Notes: generated by a model from the letters alone, not told the origin. Positions 1 to 17,747 are shown, counted from the first letter of the stretch. The stretch: 17,747 bases of DNA from Candidatus Vampirococcus lugosii (GCF_018420025.1 NZ_JAEDAM010000016.1:1-17747); one strand, 5' to 3'. Program-made: numbers and translations.

Positions 1-530
1 TTTCAAAATGTATTCATTTATCTACACTTTTGCATGATGCAGGAAAATTATGAACTGATTTATTAGCTCTTTCATCTAGAATTAAACTTAATGATGAAGA
101 GTTTAGAGAAATTAAATCTCATCCTTGAAAATGAGAAGAACTTATAAAACATTTTACTTGATTAGAGAGTATACCAAAATTTATTTACGATGGAACTTTA
201 CATCATGAAAGACCAGATTGAAGATGATATCCTTTTTGATATTCTTTGGAACAAATTCCTTTAATATCAAGAATAGTTGCAGTGGCTGATATTATAGATG
301 CAATGTTATGAAAAAGACATTATGTATTTGAAGAAAAATCTGTTAAATATGTATATGATGAATTAATTAAAGCTAGTTGAAAACAATTAGATGCTGAAAT
401 TGTAGATATAATTACTAAAGATAAAGAATTTTTTAAAAAACTTTATAGAATTTATAAAAAAATTAAAGATATTGATACTTTGGAAATTGAATCAAATTCA
501 GAATTAATTGTAATTGATAGTTTAAATTAA
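1..530 (+). CDS. HD-GYP domain phosphodiesterase (c-di-GMP type), 3' part; the 5' end lies outside the window
   Basis: The frame with its first full codon at 3 is open to TAA 528-530 if TGA is sense. The translation contains LLHDAGK, SHPGKGEE, HHERPDGRGYPFGY (codons from 201) and RIVAVADIIDAM. TGAs at 219-221, 225-227 and 237-239 fall exactly on the Gly residues of the HHExxDGxGYPxG signature. There are 9 in-frame TGAs in 175 codons. Confidence 0.85.
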
Positions 531-1390
531 TCTCATAAGTTTTTTATCTCAATTTCTCAATCATTATCAATCATTTCAAAATAATATGTTTTTCAGTTTT
601 TGTGTTCTATTATTATTATTTGAGAATTTTCACTAACTTGCAAATATTCAATATTATCTATTTCTCATATTTCATACAATATTTCAGATACAAACTTAAA
701 ATTATTTACTATCATTTTTGAATAATTTTCCATTTTGCCTTCTTTGTCATAATGGAATTTTTCGTTAATTATTTTAAATTTATTTATATCAGTTTTTGTA
801 TAATTTTGATATATTGATATAATAAAAATTGCAATTCATGATATTGTTGTAGCTATTCATATAACTAATTTTTTTGTCTCAAAAAAATATTCACTTACTT
901 TTTTGATTCTACTTATAAATTTTTTGTTATTACGAATTTCAGTTCTTATTTCTTCAAGTTTTTCTATTCACTGTTTAGTTATTTTTAGATATATAAAATA
1001 TCTATATAAAATATCAGTATTTATTTCCAATTTTCAATTTTTATTTTTTATTATTTTTGAAAAACTTATATTATTTTTTTTCAACATTTGTCTTATCCTC
1101 TTTTTACTAAGATTTTTCAAATTTTTAAATTTAAGGTTTCATATTCATACATTATAAAAAATTCTTTTTCTTAAATATGAATAATTTGTTCATATTTTTT
1201 GTAATTCTTTAGGATCAATTATTTCATATATATTTATATATCAAAAATTTTGTTCAAAAAATTTATTTTGAAGTAAAGATAAAACATATAGATCTATTTG
1301 CTTATCTAAATTTTTTTTATTTTTCTTTATATTTTCTTTTATAGCTTCGTTTATGTTTTCTTTTGTTTCTTTTGTTTTATCTTTTGTCAT
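527..1390 (-). CDS. Hypothetical membrane-anchored protein, 287 aa, no recognisable family
   Basis: ATG at 1390-1388 and TAA at 529-527. I walked all 287 triplets and found no TAA or TAG, which is improbable by chance in DNA this AT-rich; 12 TGAs are in frame. The N-terminal half is K/E/N-rich. There is one hydrophobic helix (LVIGIATTISGIAIFIISIY) followed by a C-terminal domain of about 90 aa. No upstream in-frame ATG occurs before the stop at 1514-1516. Confidence 0.6.
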
Positions 1391-1557
1391 TTTTTTGTTT
1401 TTTTTAAGATCTATATACTCATAAGTAGAATTAATATAATATATATTAAATATTCAATGTCAATTTTTTTTATAATATAAATTATTTTTTGAATAAATAT
1501 ATATTATAATAATTTATATTTATATATCTAGTTTAATTAACATTAAAATTAAATAAA

Positions 1558-1612
1558 TTTCATTATATATAAAAAATTTCATTATATATAAAAAATTTTA
1601 TTATATATAATA
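1558..1612. repeat. 19-bp tandem repeat, about 2.8 copies (tttcattatatataaaaaa)
   Basis: Copies at 1558-1576 and 1577-1595 are identical. A degenerate third copy starts at 1596. The repeat lies in the 287-bp AT-only spacer between the uvrB stop (1678) and the start of the 527..1390 gene. Confidence 0.8.
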
Positions 1613-1677
1613 TAACTTAAATTTAACATAAACAATATTACGATTTTTATATAAAAATATTACAATTTAAAAAATTA

Positions 1678-3133
1678 TTATTCTAATAATATATCTTTTA
1701 TTGTTGTATCATCACTATATCAATTTAAATATTTTTTGATAAAAGGTTTTTTGTTCAAAAGTTTATCAACACTAGAAATAAGTTTTTCATAATCTCAATC
1801 TTTGGGATAAACATAAGTTATAGGATCTAATAATCAAGTTGGTCTTATTATTTGTTCAGGAACATCTCAAGATTTACTTATTTCATATTCTCAAGGTGTA
1901 GCAGATACAAATAAAGTTTTGGCATCTTTTTTTATTTTATTTAATCATAAATTTTGTATTATATCTTCATTGTATTCCCAGGATAAACTTGTTTTTAATT
2001 CATCAAAATTTAAAGGTCTATGATCTATAGCACTTGGTAATCTAAATCAATAATCAATTAAATTTAATTTTCTAGATCTATCAGCTTTTGGCATAGCTTG
2101 TAATTGTGGTAAACTCATATGAGATTCATCTATAATATACAAAAAATCATCTGGAAAATAATCAAAAATAGTATTTGGAGCTTGTCAAGCTTTTCTATCA
2201 TCAAAATATGGAGAATAATTTTCTATTCAGGTAGTAAATCAAGTCTCTTTTATCATTCTAATATCGTATAAAACTCTTTTTTGTATTCTATTCGCTTCCA
2301 AATCTTTTCATTCTTTTTTGAAATATTCAACCCTTTCTTTCATTTCATTTTCTATAGCAATTAATATATTATCCAAATTTCACATATTTTGTAAAAATTG
2401 AGTTGCTGGCCAAATATTCAAATGATTTAATTTTCATTTATCAGAAAAAGTCATAGAATCTTTTATTGAAATAAATTCTAATTTATTTTCATCAAAAAAT
2501 AATCTATAAAGTATATTTTCCATACTAGAATATATATCTACTATATCTCATTTAAACTCAAACATTCAAGCTTCTATTTTTCATAATACTGGTTTATATT
2601 GTATTTTTAATAAATTTCTTTTTATTTCATCAAAATCATATTCATTTCAAACTTCAAAATAAATTCTATTATTTTCAAAAGTATCTTTTGATCATAGACC
2701 ATACAAAGATGAAACTGATGCAACAACTATAACATCTTTCCTACTCAACAAACTAGCCATAGTAGAAAGTCTAAACATTTCTATTTCTTTATTAATAGTA
2801 CTTTCTTTTTCTATATATATATCACGATTTGGAATATAACTTTCAGGTTGATAATAATCAAAATATGAAACAAAATAATGAACAGCATTTTTTGGAAAAA
2901 AATATTTAAATTCAGTTGCCAATTGTGCTGCCAAAGTTTTGTTGTGCGACATTATCAATGTTGGTATTTGTAAATTTTGTATAATATTTGCCATAGTAAA
3001 AGTCTTACCAGTTCATGTCGCTCATAATAATGTTGATATATTTTTTTCAAGATTTAAATCAATCTAATATTTGTTTGATAGCTATTGGTTGATCTCAAGT
3101 TGGAGAATAACTTGAATTTAATTCAAATAACAT
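1678..3133 (-). CDS. uvrB: Excinuclease ABC subunit B (UvrB), interrupted by a frameshift near 3058 and ending after helicase domain 1; possibly a pseudogene
   Basis: From ATG 3133 the frame reads [25 protein letters not shown]. After a +1 shift it continues [27 protein letters not shown]... (Walker A with TGA=Gly at 3013-3015 and 3022-3024). Further motifs are [59 protein letters not shown] and RPTGLLDP, then TAA at 1680-1678. Without the shift, the longest ATG-initiated ORF is 1678..2994. Confidence 0.9.
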
Positions 3134-3314
3134 AATTTTATTTTTTTACTATATTTAAATATAAGTAATATATTTTTTATTTTTAAAAATTAAAATTATT
3201 TTATAATAAATTAATTTAAAATATAATTTTACAAAAGTTATAAAAATAATTAAAGTAATAATATAATGAAATATAAAATTAATATTTATTAATATTTATT
3301 AAAAACAAAAAATA

Positions 3315-4550
3315 TTAATAAATCTCATTTTTCCATATATCTTTAAGATTTTGTCTTTTTCTCACTTCTTTTATATCTCATTTCTTATCAATCAATAATT
3401 CTCAAACTTCTGGATAAGAATTATAATTTTTCATACTCATAGCAGTATTATAAGCTCAAACTCAATCAATAACTATAATATCTCATATATTAACTTTTGG
3501 TAATAATATTTCTTCAATAATTTCTTGATCATATAATTTGGTAGTAAGAATATCTCATGACTCACAACAATGCCCTACTACAACATATTTTTCTTTTTCT
3601 TGAGAATTGTTTATAATATATATAGCTTGTTGTACTCAATACATAGAAACTCTTGGCATTTCAGTCATTCAAGTATTAGTTCTCAAAAATTTATATCATT
3701 TTTTTCAAGTATCTACTATATCAACTATTTTTGCAATAATACTTCAAGCATTTATTATTATATATTTTCATGGTTCTAATTCCAAATGAATTTTTCTTTG
3801 AGTTTGTTTATGAAATTCTTCAAATTTTTCTTTGACTGCATTTCAAATTGATATTAAATCTGCTGTTTTTTCATAATCCATAATAGCCATTTTGAAACCT
3901 CATCACATATTCAAAATTTCAACATCTGGAAAATCTTTAACAAAATTTAATCAAATATTTGCTGTATTTACCCAAGATTCAGAAGTATTTTCTGATCAAA
4001 TATGAAGATGAATTTTAGTTATTTTTAAATCATATTCTTGAACAATTTTTTTTACTTCTCAAATATATTCATGCCAAATACCAAAACTTGATGAAAGTCA
4101 TCAAGTAGATATAGCTGTAAAAGCTCATGATCAAACTCAAGGATTTATTCTTATTCAACAAGTTCCTCCCCTTTTTAATTTTCAAAATTCTTGAAGCTGA
4201 TACAAACTAGTAGCAACAAAAAAAACTCAAGTATTAATAAGTTTATCAAAATTTTCACTTAATTCTTGTCAAGAAATTTGAATATCATTTCATAGAAATC
4301 AAGCAGATAAAGCTCTATATACTTCATATTCTGAACTTGCATCAATTTTTATATTTTGATCTTTCAAAATTTTTAAAACATTCATATTTGAATTTGCTTT
4401 CATTGCATATCTAACAGTAAGTCAAAATGCATTAGGAAAATTGAGAAATTTTTGTGATGATTCCAATATTTTATTTTCACTGTATACATACACAGGAGTT
4501 TTATAATTATTTGTAATATACTCTATTTGAGAAATGTTTAAAAAATTCAT
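3315..4550 (-). CDS. lysA: Diaminopimelate decarboxylase-family PLP-dependent decarboxylase, 411 aa
   Basis: ATG at 4550 and TAA at 3317-3315. All triplets were checked and no TAA or TAG is present. Motifs: TPVYVYSE, RYAMKANSN (PLP lysine), NMGGGF, ELEPGKY, VVGHCCESGD and DGVGAYNTAMSMKNYNSYP. Many of the conserved Gly residues are TGA codons. Confidence 0.85.
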
Positions 4551-4634
4551 TTTTATAGTTTAATAAATTATAAGTTATAAACTATAACTATAGTAATTTA
4601 AAATCATTTTTCAACAAGAAATTAAACTAATTTT

Positions 4635-4658
4635 GATGCTCGTAATTTCGAGCTTTAA
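4635..4658. repeat. Hairpin-containing 24-bp repeat, copy A (gatGCTCGtaatttCGAGCtttaa)
   Basis: A 5-bp stem (4638-4642 with 4649-4653) and a 6-nt loop. It matches copy B at 21 of 24 positions. Two of the three differences are a compensatory pair in the stem. Confidence 0.6.
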
Positions 4659-4708
4659 ATTTTAAAAAAAGTAAAAAATATATTTATTCATACTAATCAA
4701 AATATTTC

Positions 4709-4732
4709 GATGCTCATATTTTTGAGCTTTAA
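4709..4732. repeat. Hairpin-containing 24-bp repeat, copy B (gatGCTCAtatttttGAGCtttaa)
   Basis: Stem 4712-4716 with 4723-4727. The closing pair is A-T where copy A has G-C. The flanks gat... and ...tttaa are identical in both copies. Confidence 0.6.
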
Positions 4733-4847
4733 TTATACTTATCACAAGTATAAGTAAAAATTTAAAAAATTCAAGTATTTTTTCAATAAATTGTGTCGGA
4801 TTAGATTCAAGAAAAATATTTTTAATTATTTAAAATAAAATTATAAA

Positions 4848-4866
4848 ATTTATGTAGTACATAAAT
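4848..4866. promoter_or_regulatory. Perfect 19-bp palindrome (atttatgta g tacataaat), candidate operator
   Basis: Two 9-bp arms around a central G, read directly from the sequence. It lies about 300 bp upstream of the lysA start, in the 480-bp spacer. Confidence 0.25.
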
Positions 4867-4961
4867 CTATTTTTATTTTCTCGCAAATCCTTATCTAAAT
4901 CAAGAATTTAGAAATTTTACTCTACAAAAATGAGTCTAAACAATATTTTATATTTCAATTT

Positions 4962-5000
4962 ATTGAAAAAACAAAAAACATCTCTGAATTAAACAGAGAT
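4962..5000 (-). terminator. Rho-independent terminator downstream of the RRM protein gene
   Basis: A 7-bp stem (atctctg 4980-4986 with cagagat 4994-5000) and a 7-nt loop. On the minus strand it is followed by GTTTTTTGTTTTTT. It starts 31 nt after the stop codon at 5031. Confidence 0.6.
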
Positions 5001-5030
5001 ATTTTTTATATTACTGAGAAAAAATAAAAT

Positions 5031-5306
5031 TTATTGATTATTATTTTCTTCTCTAGGTCTTGCATAATCTATTTTTATACTTCTATCATTAATTTCTGCT
5101 TCATGCATTTCTTCTTTAGCTTTGGAAGCATCTTCTGCATTAGCAAATTCTACAAAACCATAACCTTTACTTTTTTTAGTTTCTCTATCTAAGATAACTC
5201 TAGCAAAAGTAACTTCTCAATATTGAGAAAATATTTCTATTAGATCTTTACCTCTTAAAGCCCAAGGTAAATTCCCAACAAAAAGTGTATTTGATTGTTC
5301 ACTCAT
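5031..5306 (-). CDS. RRM-type (RNP-1/RNP-2) RNA-binding protein, 91 aa
   Basis: ATG at 5306 and TAA at 5033-5031. The translation is MSEQSNTLFVGNLPWALRGKDLIEIFSQYGEVTFARVILDRETKKSKGYGFVEFANAEDASKAKEEMHEAEINDRSIKIDYARPREENNNQ. It carries RNP-2 (LFVGNL) and RNP-1 (KGYGFVEF). The single TGA gives the Gly in FSQYGEV. Confidence 0.9.
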
Positions 5307-5664
5307 AATAATAATTTGTATAATAAATATAAAGGCATATAAGCCTTCGAGACCAATTGACTAACTACTAAAACAACAACTTAAAGTATAATCATATTGC
5401 TACTCAAAAGACTTATCTAACATAATAATAATTTAAAAAACAATTTCAAGAGAAAATTAAATAATTATGCTATTATACCAAAAATAACTTAATTTATTAG
5501 TAGAAATATATAAATAAATATATATATAAATAAATAAATAAAATAAAAATGATAGAAAAATTAGAAAAAATTACAATCTTACATAAGTAGTGTTGAAACT
5601 TAAATAGATTTTAAAAAAAAATAAACTATCACACTAAAATTAGTAAGTATTTTTAGTATATAAT

Positions 5665-5697
5665 AAAAACTCAAAAAAATTAAATTTTTGAGTTTTT
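5665..5697 (-). terminator. Bidirectional-looking terminator hairpin after rpoC
   Basis: A 13-bp stem (aaaaactcaaaaa 5665-5677 with tttttgagttttt 5685-5697) and a 7-nt loop. The U-rich tail is continuous with the stem on both strands. It begins 13 nt downstream of the rpoC stop at 5710-5712. Confidence 0.65.
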
Positions 5698-5709
5698 TAT
5701 CATAAATAA

Positions 5710-9492
<3,783 letters not shown>

Positions 9493-9546
9493 AACAAAGA
9501 AAATGTTAATTTATAAATCACAAATATTTAATGTAAACAATAATAA

Positions 9547-13086
<3,540 letters not shown>

Positions 13087-13093
13087 TATTTAT

Positions 13094-13108
13094 ATTTTAT
13101 ATTATAAA
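13094..13108 (-). promoter_or_regulatory. TATAAT-containing 15-mer (TTTATAATATAAAAT on the minus strand), 7 nt upstream of the rpoB ATG
   Basis: An exact 15-nt copy of the element at 13366-13380, at an equivalent offset from a start codon. It contains a consensus -10 hexamer (13106-13101). Confidence 0.35.
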
Positions 13109-13115
13109 CAACTTA

Positions 13116-13135
13116 AAAATAACCCTAATAGGGCT
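13116..13135 (-). terminator. Small GC-cored hairpin plus U-run in the rpmH-rpoB spacer; candidate attenuator or weak terminator
   Basis: The minus strand reads AGCCCUAUUAGGGUU. The stem has CCCU/AGGG plus a G-U and an A-U pair, with a 3-nt loop, and is followed by AUUUUUAAG. It is the only G+C-rich patch in this 115-bp spacer. Confidence 0.3.
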
Positions 13136-13201
13136 ATAAATTACACACAAATAACAAAAAAGTCAAAAAAAATCATATTAGATTTATTTAAAAGTCAAAA
13201 A

Positions 13202-13357
13202 TTATTTTTTTGAAACAACTAAAGAGTGTCTACCTTTAGCTCTTCTTCTTTTAAGAATATTTCTACCTGATTTAGTAGACATTCTTGCAAAAAATCAATG
13301 AACTTTAATTCTTTTTGACCACTTATATTTTCTAATCCTATTTAATTTTGATGGCAT
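13202..13357 (-). CDS. rpmH: 50S ribosomal protein L34 (51 aa)
   Basis: ATG at 13357 and TAA at 13204-13202. The translation is [51 protein letters not shown]. The one TGA supplies the Gly of the conserved HGF(R)ARM motif. Confidence 0.9.
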
Positions 13358-13365
13358 CAATATAA

Positions 13366-13380
13366 ATTTTATATTATAAA
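13366..13380 (-). promoter_or_regulatory. TATAAT-containing 15-mer (TTTATAATATAAAAT on the minus strand), 8 nt upstream of the rpmH ATG
   Basis: An exact copy of the element at 13094-13108. Confidence 0.35.
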
Positions 13381-13408
13381 TATAGGATATATTCTTAAAA
13401 CTAAAAAA

Positions 13409-13609
13409 CTATTTTATATATTCTATTATTCACAGTTCCCTAGCTCTAATAATAGCTTTCCTAACTTTTTTTTGTTGAGAAACTGAATTACCAGTAAATC
13501 TCCTAGGTTTTATATCACCAAATCTAGTCATATATTTCTTAAGAAGAATTACAGATTTCCAGTTTATCAAATATTCATTATTTTTATCAAAATAACTTTT
13601 TTTTGACAT
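13409..13609 (-). CDS. rpsR: 30S ribosomal protein S18 (66 aa)
   Basis: ATG at 13609 and TAG at 13411-13409. The translation is MSKKSYFDKNNEYLINWKSVILLKKYMTRFGDIKPRRFTGNSVSQQKKVRKAIIRARELGIIEYIK. This fits the S18 pattern (G.I.PRR.TG....Q......AI.RAR). Confidence 0.9.
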
Positions 13610-13678
13610 AAGACAATTATATTTAATAAATAAATTTTTTCAATAATTCAAGACAAATAATAAAAGTTTATATATAAA

Positions 13679-14074
13679 CTACTTATTTAATTGAGCAGAA
13701 TCTAAATCTTTAAATGCTTTTTCAGTTTCTTCTTTCTTTTTTTCTTCTGCATCTTCAAAAGTTTTATTTATATCATAATACTTCAAAAACTTCTCACTTG
13801 AAGACATTGAATATATAAAATATCTAATAACTGACTCCATTAATTTAAGTTTATAATTAATAGTAGACAACAAATCATTATCTCAAGAGAAAAAAAGAGA
13901 AAGAAAATAAGCTCTATCATTTCAAGACACTTCATATGCCAAATCTAAAATACCAATATCATCTCTATCTAATATATTATCTCAAATTATTCATTCTATA
14001 TTTGATATAACAGTTTTTATATCATCTTTATTCATTTTTGGATCAACAAGAACAACAAGTTCATATTTATTCAT
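13679..14074 (-). CDS. rpsF: 30S ribosomal protein S6 (131 aa) with an acidic/lysine-rich tail
   Basis: ATG at 14074 and TAG at 13681-13679. This extends the track ORF 13679..13873 upstream through 4 TGAs. The N-terminus reads MNKYELVVLVDPKMNKDDIKTVISNIEGIIGDNILDRDDIGILDLAYEV..., which is S6-like (YE.V....P). Its position just upstream of rpsR supports the call. Confidence 0.85.
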
Positions 14075-14104
14075 ATTCAAATTTTTAACTTGTAAAAACA
14101 AATA

Positions 14105-14127
14105 ATACTATATACTATATACTATAC
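14105..14127. repeat. 7-bp tandem repeat (tatacta, 3 copies) overlapping the tsf stop codon
   Basis: The sequence atactatatactatatactatacc was read directly. On the minus strand it gives three TATAGT boxes 35-50 nt upstream of the rpsF ATG. Confidence 0.6.
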
Positions 14128-14915
14128 CTTCTAAATTTCAAAAAATCAAATCAATCTGGCAATATATCTTTCATTTTTTTAGATTCATCTCTAATATAAG
14201 ATTGTTCCATCAAAACTATATCACCAAAATGTTTAGAAACTTTTCCTTCCAATATTTTTTCCAAAACTTCTTTTGGTTTTCAAGAACTTTCAATTTCTTC
14301 TCTAAATCAATTTTTAATAGCTTCAATATAATCACTAGGAACATCTTGTATAGACTTATATTCAGGATCCATAGCAGTTATTTGCAAAGCAATTTCTTTT
14401 GCACTATCATCAAAATCTCAACCATCATAATAAACAACAGTAATAATTTTATCACCTGGATGAGAATAAATATAAGATTTTCAAGAATCAACAAAGACAT
14501 CCAACAACTTTATATTTTCTCATATAGTTCATATAGCACTATTAATTATAGGAGTCAAATTATTATCAATAAAATCAGAATCTACATCATTTAAACTATC
14601 AATAGAATCTAAATTTTCTCAAAAAATATTTAAAATTTCTTCTACTAAAGCATGAAAATCTGGACTTTTTGCAACAAAATCTGTTTCACATCAAAGTTTA
14701 ACTCAAACATTTTTTCAATTAATTTTCAAAACCTTAACAACACCATCATTAGTATCTCTATCAAATTTTTTAGCGGCTTTAGATGCACCTTTTTCTTTTA
14801 AATATTCAACAGAAGCATCAAAATCTCATCAAGTTTTTTCTATAGCTTCTTTACAATCTTTAAAAGCTGCTTTTGTAGTTTCTCTAAGTTTTTTCAAAAG
14901 TTTTATATCTGCCAT
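14115..14915 (-). CDS. tsf: Translation elongation factor Ts (266 aa)
   Basis: ATG at 14915 and TAG at 14117-14115. Triplets from the stop codon up to about 14762 were walked one by one with no TAA/TAG; the remaining ~50 N-terminal codons were read sequentially during translation. The N-terminus reads MADIKLLKKLRETTKAAFKDCKEAIEKTGGDFDASVEYLKEKGASKAAKK. Later motifs include GCETDFVAKSPDF, IGTIGENIKL and the ITAMDP region. Confidence 0.92.
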
Positions 14916-14959
14916 AATCTAAGAATTAATGTAATACAAATAAATATTTCACAAAACAA

Positions 14960-15376
14960 CTATAATTCTTTATCAGAAGAATCTATATCTTCAAACAAAT
15001 CAGACACCCAAGATCATATTCAATAAAAAATAGGAAAAATAGTTTTATTTGATGAAGTCGTATAAAAACCTTCATTAGCTTGTTTAATAAATATAATAAA
15101 CATTACCAATAAAAACAAAAAAATTAATATTGGTAGAGCTCTCAAAAAAGGTATAAAAATCAAAAACACACTAACAACCAAACTTCAAACAAAAATTAGC
15201 CACCATCAAATAGCTTGTTTAAAATGAAAAGTTCAATATTTTCATAATTTTTCTGAATTCAATCAAAAAAATATTCATACCAAAAAATACATAACCACTG
15301 CCCTTTTTCTTTCTGTTGAAGCTGGAACATAATTCTCATCAATAAGACTATTTAACTCATTTTTTTTATTAGACAT
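14960..15376 (-). CDS. Small integral membrane protein (138 aa, about 3 TM helices), possibly DUF4870-like
   Basis: ATG at 15376 and TAG at 14962-14960. Every triplet was walked and no TAA or TAG was found. The translation includes TERKRAVVMYFLVGIFFGL...HFKQAIGWWLIFVGSLVVSVFLIFIPFLRALPILIFLFLLVMFIIFI. Its start lies 3 nt after the rpsB stop. The family assignment is a guess from motif resemblance only. Confidence 0.65.
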
Positions 15377-15379
15377 AAT

Positions 15380-16042
15380 TTATTTTTTTAGAAGATATTC
15401 TATAACAAATTTAACACTTCCATAAGAAGTTATATTTGACACAACTAAACTGGAAGAGTCCCAATATTTATCAAAATCAGTTGAAGAAAGAATAACATTA
15501 TCCAATCATAATATTTCAATCTCTTTAACAAAACTAGATAAAGCAACTCAATCCAAAACAATAGCAAAATCTGGAGATTTCTTTAAATTTTTAACACCAC
15601 TATAAATTAATTTTAATTTATTCAATTTCTTAATAGTTTGTTGCTTTTCTTTTTTTGATAAAGTCGCAAAATCAGAAGATTCAACAAAAGCCGAAAGCTC
15701 AAGCATAGAATTTATTCTAGATTTCAAAGTATCAAAATTAGTAAAAACACCAGAAGGAACATTATTATTCATATAATGAATTCATTGAGATTCACAAATA
15801 TCTTTTATTTCGTCTCTAAATATAACTTTATCAGAAACAAGAAGTATATCTTTTCATTCATTTTTTGCAGACTGAATTCTTTCCCTTGCTATCTTAAGTT
15901 GAGATAATATATATTCTGGATTTATAATAACCAATCAATCTCTAACATCAGCCCAATATTTTCTAGTTTTAGGATTAGCAAACCTTTTTAATGTTCAAAC
16001 ATAAGATTTAGCTCAAACAACACTATCAACTGTTATTTCCAT
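15380..16042 (-). CDS. rpsB: 30S ribosomal protein S2 (220 aa)
   Basis: ATG at 16042 and TAA at 15382-15380. It contains the track fragment 15548..15772. The translation includes MEITVDSVVGAKSYVGTLKRFANPKTRKYW...GKDILLVSDK...PDFAIVLDGVALSSFVKEIEILGLDNVILSSTDFD. This is collinear with S2, and the gene sits upstream of tsf as usual. Confidence 0.88.
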
Positions 16043-16068
16043 AATTTAATTTTAAATAACTTATAAAA

Positions 16069-16446
16069 CTATTTTAATGTAACTGTAGCACCAGCAGCTT
16101 CTAATTTAGATTTTAACTCTTCTGCTTCTTCAACAGCAATTCATTCTTTAACCAAAGTAGGAGTTTTCTCAACCATTTCTTTAGCTTCTTTTAATCACAA
16201 TCATAAAGCTTCTTTAATAGCTTTAATAACAGATATTTTTTGTTGCCCTATTTCAGATAATTCAACAGCAACAGTATCATTTCATTCATCAGCATCATCT
16301 CAAGCCCCTCAAGCCCCTCATACAGCTACAGCAGCAGCGGAAACACCAAATTCTTCTTCCAAAGCTTTAACAACTTCATTTAATTCACTTACAGTAAGCT
16401 CTTTCAATAAATCTATAATTTTTTGTCAATTTTCTGATATACTCAT
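16069..16446 (-). CDS. rplL: 50S ribosomal protein L7/L12 (125 aa)
   Basis: ATG at 16446 and TAG at 16071-16069. The translation includes ...[35 protein letters not shown]...KISVIKAIKEALGLGLKEAKEMVEKTP...AEELKSKLEAAGATVTLK. Of 13 Gly codons, 8 are TGA. These include both Gly of the invariant LGLGLKEAK (16195-16197 and 16201-16203). Confidence 0.95.
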
Positions 16447-16484
16447 TTTTGATTAATAATTAATTAATTTAAAAATAATTCAAA

Positions 16485-16997
16485 CTATTCTCATTTTTTA
16501 GCAATTTGATCAACACCAACAGCAAATGAACGAAGTGGATAATTCATCAAAAAAGCAAATTTAGACAACAATTCATCTTTAGTTGGAAGTTCAGCAATTT
16601 CTGATACATAAGAACTATCTTTCCACTCTGAATCGTACCATCATCAAAGATAAACTAATTCAAACAACTTTTTCTCTTTCTTCGCTTGTTTAACAAATTT
16701 TGAAACTTCTTTTAAAGGAAGATATTCATTTTCTCAAGAAGAAAACAAAGCAATTACTGATCACTCCAAATCATCCAAAGAAACTTCTCATAAACCCGAA
16801 GAAATAGCTGTAGACAAAAAAACTCTTTTCTTAACAACAACCATCTTAGCACCAAACTCAACTATACTATTCCTCAATTTATTGATTTCATTAACAGGTA
16901 TTCATGATTGCTTCAACAAAACAATATTCGATGAAGATTCAATATCTACCTTATAATTATCAACAAGACTTTCTTTCTGTTTCCTTGTTAAAGCCAT
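16485..16997 (-). CDS. rplJ: 50S ribosomal protein L10 (170 aa)
   Basis: ATG at 16997 and TAG at 16487-16485. The translation includes MALTRKQKESLVDNYKVDIESSSNIVLLKQSGIPVNEINKLRNSIVEFGAKMVVVKKRVF... The N-terminal pattern is L10-like, and the gene lies immediately upstream of rplL. Confidence 0.88.
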
Positions 16998-17018
16998 ATA
17001 AATATAAACTTAAATCAT

Positions 17019-17042
17019 AAAAAAACCTTAAAACATTAAGGT
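17019..17042 (-). terminator. Terminator-like hairpin plus U6 inside the rplJ 5' leader; candidate L10-leader attenuator
   Basis: The minus strand reads ACCUUAA-UGUU-UUAAGGU (7-bp stem, 17042-17036 with 17031-17025), followed by UUUUUU (17024-17019). It ends 21 nt before the rplJ ATG. No minus-strand gene is detectable upstream within the window. Confidence 0.4.
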
Positions 17043-17358
17043 GATTTAAATCAAAAAATGAGATTTAATAACCACCTAGGCAGGATTTATTTTATAGCAA
17101 CACTACAAAACCTACTTTCTTTAGTAGTTTTTAAAATAAAAACTATAATACAGTTTATAATGATTTAATATAAAAAATCAAGAGAAAATAAACTAACCTT
17201 CTGCAATAAAAAGATAAAAAAAGCTTGAAAAGTTAATTAAGAACTAATAAAAAACAATAAATAAAAAAGGTGGAATTAGTAGAAATTTATGAAAAATATG
17301 TATAAAGGAGGTATTAAAATTAAGTATAAATGCATTAAAATTAATAAAATATAAGAAA

Positions 17359-17574
17359 ATGAATTATATAAAAAAACTGTTAAATTTAAAAAATTTTGAA
17401 CAAGAAATTTCTAATTCTGTAGAAAATATGTATGATAAATTATATAAACTTACATATAATTACAAAAAAGATTCAGCTAAACTAATAAAAGATATAGTAC
17501 AGTGATTTTTGAAAACAAAAGATATTTCTTTATCAGAAATAAGTAGATATTCTTTTAAAAATAGTAAACTGTAA
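17359..17574 (+). CDS. Hypothetical small protein (71 aa)
   Basis: ATG at 17359 and TAA at 17572-17574, with one in-frame TGA. The frame is actually open from 17251 (108 codons), which is unusual by chance in DNA this AT-rich. The K/N/E-rich composition matches the real genes here, whereas the antisense track ORF 17460..17681 is F/L/I-rich. No family was recognised and the start codon is uncertain. Confidence 0.4.
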
Positions 17575-17642
17575 TATAGACTAGCGTTATTTACACAAAA
17601 AGATATAATAGATAAAATTTTTATTTGTGTAAAAAACAAAAT

Positions 17643-17747
17643 ATGAATATACATATAACATGTACTCAAAAAAAAGAACATAAAAATCAGAGACTAACAG
17701 AAAAGAATCGTAAACATATTCGAAAACTATATTGTGATCAATGGTCT
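17643..17747 (+). CDS. Hypothetical protein, 5' part only (35 codons, runs off the window); weak resemblance to an IS30-type or HTH N-terminus
   Basis: ATG at 17643 and open to the window edge. The translation is MNIHITCTQKKEHKNQRLTEKNRKHIRKLYCDQWS. The LTxxxRxxIxxLxxxxxS spacing recalls the HTH N-termini of IS30-family transposases. This is a pattern match from memory only. Confidence 0.3.
   Translation, partial: MNIHITCTQKKEHKNQRLTEKNRKHIRKLYCDQWS

Follow-up and report, generated by a model that had tools for sequence, protein, structure and literature searches.

Genetic code 25, in which UGA is read as glycine, reportedly goes back to Rinke et al. 2013. For the phylum, the assignment dates from 2013; for the genome of Candidatus Vampirococcus lugosii, it was stated in 2021 by Moreira et al. 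(2021, PMC8080830), who annotated this genome with Prodigal under table 25. Across the clade the recoding is accompanied by a gene for a tRNA-Gly with the anticodon UCA and by a missing release factor 2 (RF2), and two nominal Gracilibacteria that lack tRNA(UCA) and possess RF2 show no recoding (Shulgina and Eddy 2021, PMC8629427). In the sister clade BD1-5, glycine at UGA was confirmed by proteomics (Hanke et al. 2014). The same study proposed computationally, by means of Codetta, that CGA and CGG encode tryptophan in Absconditabacteria; its main text does not mention Vampirococcus (Shulgina and Eddy 2021, PMC8629427). Here, a stretch of 17,747 bases from V. lugosii (NZ_JAEDAM010000016.1, positions 1-17747; in the following, the window) was analyzed for the meaning of its TGA and CGG codons. 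As judged from the sequence, it is almost certainly a V. lugosii contig on which UGA encodes glycine, UAA and UAG are the sole terminators and tryptophan is kept on UGG. This part is not new, because it has been published for the V. lugosii genome by Moreira et al. 2021. The putative reassignment of CGA and CGG, a proposal made for the phylum in 2021, is here applied to V. lugosii for the first time.

The window has a GC content of 23.7% and looks non-coding unless it is translated with UGA as glycine. Under the standard code (table 11) it holds three open reading frames (ORFs) of at least 100 amino acids, the longest of which comprises 157 amino acids from its start codon. The same maximum had been given in the original prediction, which was made from the sequence and read TGA as glycine throughout. 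When stops are limited to TAA and TAG, long frames open, including frames of 1266 and 1180 codons, and nearly all of them lie on the minus strand. Genes were identified by Pfam and by comparison with orthologues. Among them are rpoC (5710-9492, minus strand), with 75 TGA and 8 TGG codons, and rpoB (9547-13086, minus strand), with 71 TGA and 3 TGG codons, the latter all at conserved tryptophan columns; both end in TAA. A protein search with RpoB, in which TGA was masked as X, returned the Candidatus Vampirococcus lugosii DNA-directed RNA polymerase subunit beta of NCBI as the best match. The deposited protein differs from the rpoB of the window solely at the 71 TGA codons, each of which is glycine in the deposit. 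This identity shows that the window is a V. lugosii contig. The NCBI lineage of this organism is Absconditibacteriota/SR1 (Absconditabacteria), the next RpoB matches were Absconditicoccus praedator at 74% and then other Absconditabacteria, and the gene order L10-L12-S2-hypothetical protein-EF-Ts-S6-(SSB)-S18-L34-RpoB-RpoC is common to the relatives. The placement in the clade of SR1/Absconditabacteria and Gracilibacteria, which had been proposed before any database search, is thus borne out by the RpoB match, the lineage and the shared gene order.

The 16 reading frames of the window (5088 codons) contain 270 in-frame TGA codons and not a single internal TAA or TAG, whereas 500 TAA and 250 TAG occur in the two remaining frames of the same DNA. 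TGA is therefore a sense codon in these genes. All 16 frames end in TAA (10) or TAG (6), and no gene in the window needs a TGA terminator. The original prediction was right that every gene end is TAA or TAG, but it had counted 15 ends instead of 16. The lengths of the products agree with those of the orthologues in relatives (RpoB 1179 versus 1181-1185 residues, L12 125 versus 125, S18 66 versus 66), and the frames of the relatives likewise carry TGA but no TAA or TAG. The fact that table 11 yields short ORFs only would also suit a field of pseudogenes, in which TGA is still a stop codon that is occasionally passed by read-through or by insertion of selenocysteine. The probability of this explanation is negligible, as it is already refuted by the frames themselves, which are up to 1260 codons long and contain 270 TGA but neither TAA nor TAG. 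Moreover, the genes concerned (rpoB, rpoC and those for ribosomal proteins and EF-Ts) are essential, and their sequence and order are conserved in relatives. Selenocysteine is further contradicted by the occurrence of TGA in all gene classes, by the lack of any TGA aligned to a cysteine of E. coli, and by the lack of any Rfam family match within the window.

The amino acid encoded by TGA was deduced from three independent reference sets of standard-code sequences. For the first set, the orthologues of ten genes were taken from E. coli K-12, to which 219 of 237 TGA codons could be aligned. The second comprised 149 diverse RpoB cluster representatives with at most 51% identity, covering 66 TGA columns, and the third RpoB, RpoC, L7/L12 and L10 from 78 named genomes, including Bacillota, Actinomycetota and Cyanobacteria, covering 136 TGA columns. 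The protein search with RpoB yielded relatives from the recoded clade only. Their deposited RpoB proteins were left out as references and these non-recoded sets were used instead, because the depositors' translations, made with table 25 or 4, presuppose a code. Many of the relatives' RpoB sequences in public protein collections were translated with table 4 and show tryptophan at 30-60 of the positions that are TGA in the window. Such mistranslated proteins would mislead residue tabulations.

Glycine was the prevailing residue opposite TGA in all three sets. In the E. coli orthologues it was found opposite 126 of the 219 aligned TGA codons, with tryptophan opposite two and cysteine opposite none; for single genes, the glycine count was 13 of 19 aligned TGA codons in uvrB, 19 of 28 in the lysA-like gene and 41 of 75 in rpoC, where one TGA was opposite tryptophan. 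The GGN codons of the window were opposite glycine in 54 of 66 cases. Among the 149 RpoB representatives, glycine was the consensus at 48 of 66 TGA columns and tryptophan at none; of the 36 TGA columns that are conserved to at least 80%, 35 are glycine and none is tryptophan. The 78 named genomes have a glycine consensus at 96 of 136 TGA columns and a tryptophan consensus at none, compared with a background of 2.7% glycine consensus at other codons (binomial p ~1e-117). For rpoC alone, glycine is the consensus at 44 of 61 covered TGA columns. Conversely, where the named genomes have at least 90% glycine (127 columns), the codon in the window is TGA in 77 and GGN in 34. This tabulation gave the outcome that had been predicted, a preponderance of glycine opposite TGA.

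Tryptophan is encoded by TGG. Eight tryptophan residues of the E. coli orthologues are opposite TGG codons of the window, all three conserved tryptophan columns of the RpoB representatives carry TGG, and the 11 tryptophan columns of the named genomes carry TGG in seven cases and TGA in none. The tryptophan of the RpoC motif PEW, singled out in the original prediction as an argument against table 4, is indeed TGG (8602-8604). In Mycoplasma, Spiroplasma and several endosymbionts of insects, the genomes of which are just as AT-rich, TGA encodes tryptophan (table 4). The very low GC content of 23.7% would fit such a code, as would the many public translations of relatives that show tryptophan at TGA positions, gene callers having defaulted to table 4. 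However, table 4 is already refuted by the residue tabulations, in which tryptophan is opposite two of 219 TGA codons in E. coli and is the consensus of no TGA column in either multi-genome set. It would also place tryptophan in the Walker A loop GxxGxGKT and in the hinge of L7/L12, and TGA and TGG never exchange among nine genomes of the clade despite their difference of a single base. A tryptophan reading of TGA is thus highly improbable. The recoded window resembles code 4 in that UGA has become a sense codon in a small, AT-rich genome that can presumably dispense with RF2. It differs in the amino acid, which is glycine and not tryptophan, and in a far higher frequency of TGA, which at 531 per 10,000 codons is ten times as common as TGG.

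The motifs in which TGA had been noticed at invariant glycine positions were recovered at all of the coordinates given. On the minus strand, the two TGA codons of the UvrB Walker A motif (3013-3015, 3022-3024) lie inside LL-x-AT-x-TGKT. On the plus strand, the HD-GYP signature at 219-239 reads TGA AGA TGA TAT CCT TTT TGA after HHERPD. L7/L12 contains TGA TTG TGA at 16195-16203 and TGA GGG GCT TGA GGG GCT TGA in its hinge at 16300-16320. The RpoB motif PLV-TGA-T-TGA spans positions 11167-11184, the first of its TGA codons being 11173-11175, and the TGA of the L34 motif H-TGA-F is located at 13295-13297. Only the RpoC motif had been misread in part: the adjacent TGA codons are present, but the sequence is TFH-GGT-TGA-TGA (6604-6621) and not TFH-TGA-TGA.

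Codon exchange was examined on the rpoB loci of eight relatives, A. praedator among them, whose rpoB and rpoC genes were placed together with those of the window in codon-aware alignments of nine genomes. TGA was paired with TGA in 63% and with GGN in 25% of 9402 pairs, but with TGG in none. At 103 of the 146 TGA columns of the window in these two genes, all eight relatives have TGA or GGN. The absence of TGA-TGG pairs and the TGG codons at conserved tryptophan columns uphold the earlier argument that tryptophan is kept on TGG and that table 4 does not apply. In the window itself, glycine is encoded by TGA 270 times, GGT 62 times, GGA 12 times, GGG five times and GGC once, so that TGA accounts for 270 of 350 glycine codons (77%) and GGA has almost vanished. 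The proportion of TGA among the glycine codons of rpoB and rpoC ranges across the nine genomes from 17% at 40% GC to 88% at 27.5% GC and falls with rising GC content (Spearman rho -0.75, p = 0.02). This trend fits a shift of GGA to TGA by AT pressure once UGA had become readable. Two further metagenome-assembled genomes labelled Candidatus Gracilibacteria (L008 and L009) have rpoB genes with 0 and 1 TGA versus 91 and 96 GGN codons, respectively, and the rpoB of L009 contains 30 CGA. These genes do not look recoded, in agreement with the published remark on standard-code Gracilibacteria.

Some observations weigh against an unrestricted glycine reading. About 30% of the covered TGA columns have a consensus other than glycine in the distant references (alanine, glutamate, serine, asparagine and others). 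Glycine is the consensus at 71% of the TGA columns versus 88% of the GGN columns (Fisher p = 0.02), and in comparison with E. coli it is opposite 58% of TGA versus 82% of GGN codons (Fisher p = 0.0003). Furthermore, no tRNA gene is located within the window. A non-glycine consensus at some columns is normal for glycine at variable positions. The slight under-representation of TGA compared with GGN at glycine columns of the highest conservation could also be taken as a sign of a dual meaning, in which UGA is mostly glycine but, owing to competition or to misreading by wobble, also serves at some sites as a terminator or tryptophan codon. In principle, a tRNA(UCA) with U34 could read UGG too (Shulgina and Eddy 2021, PMC8629427), and proteomics of the sister clade BD1-5 yielded, at the highest stringency, one tryptophan peptide versus 40 glycine peptides at UGA (Hanke et al. 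2014). However, no gene of the window requires a TGA terminator, and ambiguous decoding would come at a high cost with TGA in 77 of 127 columns of at least 90% glycine, catalytic loops included. A dual meaning therefore appears very unlikely, and UGA as glycine with UAA and UAG as terminators is preferred. In this respect the window agrees with code 25 as annotated by Moreira et al. 2021: the organism is the same, the deposited RpoB equals the translation of the window, and nothing differs for TGA.

According to the literature on the clade, UGA would be read by a dedicated tRNA-Gly with the anticodon UCA and the identity elements of glycyl-tRNA synthetase (G1:C72, C2:G71, G3:C70, U73). Loss of RF2 would have removed the competition for UGA, and AT mutational pressure would then have shifted glycine codons from GGA to TGA. 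No prfB, the gene for RF2, is among the genes of the window, to which this statement is confined. Release factors, tRNA-Gly and UvrB are not treated in the supplementary material of Moreira et al. 2021. Analysis with ARAGORN found tRNAs for Cys, Phe, Pro and Ile only in the rpoB loci of the eight relatives, without any tRNA-Gly(UCA), and no tRNA at all in five further loci. A pattern scan of metagenomes for tRNA-Gly(UCA) detected at least four canonical tRNA(UCA) with a glycine-type acceptor stem; among the matches listed, none of these is tied to Absconditabacteria, and some of them could be tRNA-Gly(UCC) altered at a single base. Most of the matches listed are chance matches in GC-rich DNA without a tRNA call or genes similar to tRNA-Gly(UCC) in which one C of the anticodon loop is missing. 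The latter (L096, L097, L109, L157 and about 30 other loci) have a six-base loop, CUUCAA, which corresponds to UCC minus one C. ARAGORN assigns the anticodon 'tc' to these genes, and the same sequence occurs in several independent assemblies, in some cases within tRNA clusters of the ordinary type. Either sequencing errors or genuine odd tRNAs may be the cause, and these genes are unlinked to the window.

The window was also analyzed for the extended code proposed for Absconditabacteria. Its arginine-type codons comprise 158 AGA, 24 AGG, six CGT, one CGG and no CGA. The only CGG is located at residue 126 of rpoB (12709-12711, minus strand) and is arginine in the deposited protein. Across the nine genomes, this column is occupied by CGG (six genomes), CGA (one) or TGG (two), but never by AGA or AGG. 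Of the 22 CGA or CGG codons in rpoB and rpoC of the relatives, 18 are at columns with TGG in other members, and in three relatives (L090, L091 and L093) CGA or CGG occupies tryptophan columns that standard-code bacteria share universally (170 and 1052 of RpoB; 22, 104 and 727 of RpoC). In the nine genomes, CGR was paired with TGG in 52% and with CGR in 28% of 176 pairs and with AGR in none, and AGR was likewise never paired with CGR. Four more CGR codons in rpsB and in a conserved hypothetical gene of the relatives are all at TGG columns; in A. praedator rpsB, a CGA is opposite the window's TGG at residue 194.

In standard-code bacteria, RpoB column 126 holds arginine, lysine or asparagine, so that a retained arginine is conceivable at this single site. 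However, it is very unlikely that a nearly extinct arginine codon survived in seven of nine diverged genomes without any AGA, and the CGG of the window is therefore probably a tryptophan codon. The arginine deposited at this position would then be wrong. The evidence from V. lugosii itself is comparative and thin, as it consists of one codon and zero CGA. The pattern resembles the extended Absconditabacteria code in that CGA and CGG are very rare, arginine is encoded nearly throughout by AGA, and CGR in the eight relatives is paired with TGG and not with AGR; it differs in that a single CGG and no CGA is present in the window. Together, these comparisons make it likely that V. lugosii and its nearest relatives share three codon changes, UGA to glycine as well as CGG and CGA to tryptophan. 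In this AT-rich lineage, UGA would then make up 77-88% of the glycine codons, with GGA almost lost. The choice of table 25 in the original prediction thus stands with regard to UGA. As a description of the whole code of this lineage, NCBI table 25 is probably incomplete, since CGG behaves like a tryptophan codon in comparison with the relatives. With regard to the annotation of V. lugosii under code 25, the reading of CGG at rpoB residue 126, arginine in the deposit and pointing to tryptophan in the relatives, is the difference.

Upstream of the polymerase genes, the ribosomal protein genes are encoded on the minus strand in the order shared with the relatives. They start with rplJ (L10, 16485-16997; seven TGA, Pfam Ribosomal_L10) and rplL (L7/L12, 16069-16446; eight TGA, including those at 16195-16203 and in the hinge at 16300-16320), followed by rpsB (S2, 15380-16042; seven TGA, Pfam Ribosomal_S2 7e-24). 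Between rpsB and tsf lies a gene for a conserved hypothetical membrane protein (14960-15376, eight TGA). This predicted membrane protein of 138 residues has no Pfam match, contains two adjacent conserved tryptophans and is found at the same position in all eight relatives. It is followed by tsf (EF-Ts, 14115-14915; 13 TGA, Pfam EF_TS 4e-40), rpsF (S6, 13679-14074; four TGA, Pfam Ribosomal_S6) and rpsR (S18, 13409-13609; one TGA), all of which end in TAG, and by rpmH (L34, 13202-13357), which carries the H-TGA-F motif. In six of the eight relatives (L006, L007, L088, L089, L090 and L092) an ssb gene lies between rpsF and rpsR; in the window these two genes are spaced by 69 bases (13609-13679) without ssb.

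The region 3' of rpoC contains genes for an RRM-type RNA-binding protein (5031-5306, minus strand; one TGA, Pfam RRM_1 2e-21) and a lysA-like decarboxylase dependent on pyridoxal 5'-phosphate (3315-4550, minus strand; 30 TGA, ending in TAA, Pfam Orn_Arg_deC_N 3e-20). Synteny after rpoC varies among all relatives. Five of them (L006, L007, L088, L089 and L092) have a tRNA-Cys(GCA) directly after rpoC, which is absent from the corresponding part of the window (5360-5710). At the other end of the window, an HD-GYP-type HD domain protein is encoded on the plus strand (3-530; nine TGA, ending in TAA, Pfam HD_5 8e-11), the 5' end of which is cut by the start of the contig; it harbors the motif HHERPD-TGA-R-TGA-YPF-TGA. 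It is followed by a hypothetical protein without family match (527-1390, minus strand; 12 TGA, ending in TAA).

The uvrB gene is broken at two points. Its main frame (1678-3063, minus strand; 20 TGA, Pfam UvrB_inter and ResIII) corresponds to residues 27-463 of E. coli UvrB in a tblastn comparison, and its first ~31 residues are in another frame, of which a fragment (3005-3133, minus strand; three TGA) corresponds to E. coli residues 5-31. The shift occurs at a run of seven A at 3041-3047, where six or eight A would restore the frame. In addition, the gene does not extend beyond the position that matches residue 463 of E. coli UvrB. The C-terminal third (E. coli residues 464-673), which we take to be the second helicase domain, is thus missing; no trace of it was found elsewhere within the window. 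The damage could represent genuine decay or slippage at the run of A, or it could be an assembly artefact after amplification by MDA or MALBAC.

The recoding also affects how such genomes are found and annotated. A search of genome contigs with V. lugosii RpoB by back-translation and tblastn recovered no close relative and not even the organism's own genome; the 78 standard-code genomes that it yielded were those used above as references. Recoded clades are invisible to this type of search because it back-translates glycine to GGN and takes TGA for a stop. If CGA and CGG indeed encode tryptophan, the deposited proteome of V. lugosii, translated with table 25, would be wrong at every CGG and CGA, and these errors would be small but systematic. 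For the biology of the lineage, the reassignment of UGA represents a classic example of stop codon capture under AT pressure. It presumably sets these predatory bacteria, which scavenge DNA, genetically apart from their prey and from phages (Moreira et al. 2021, PMC8080830).

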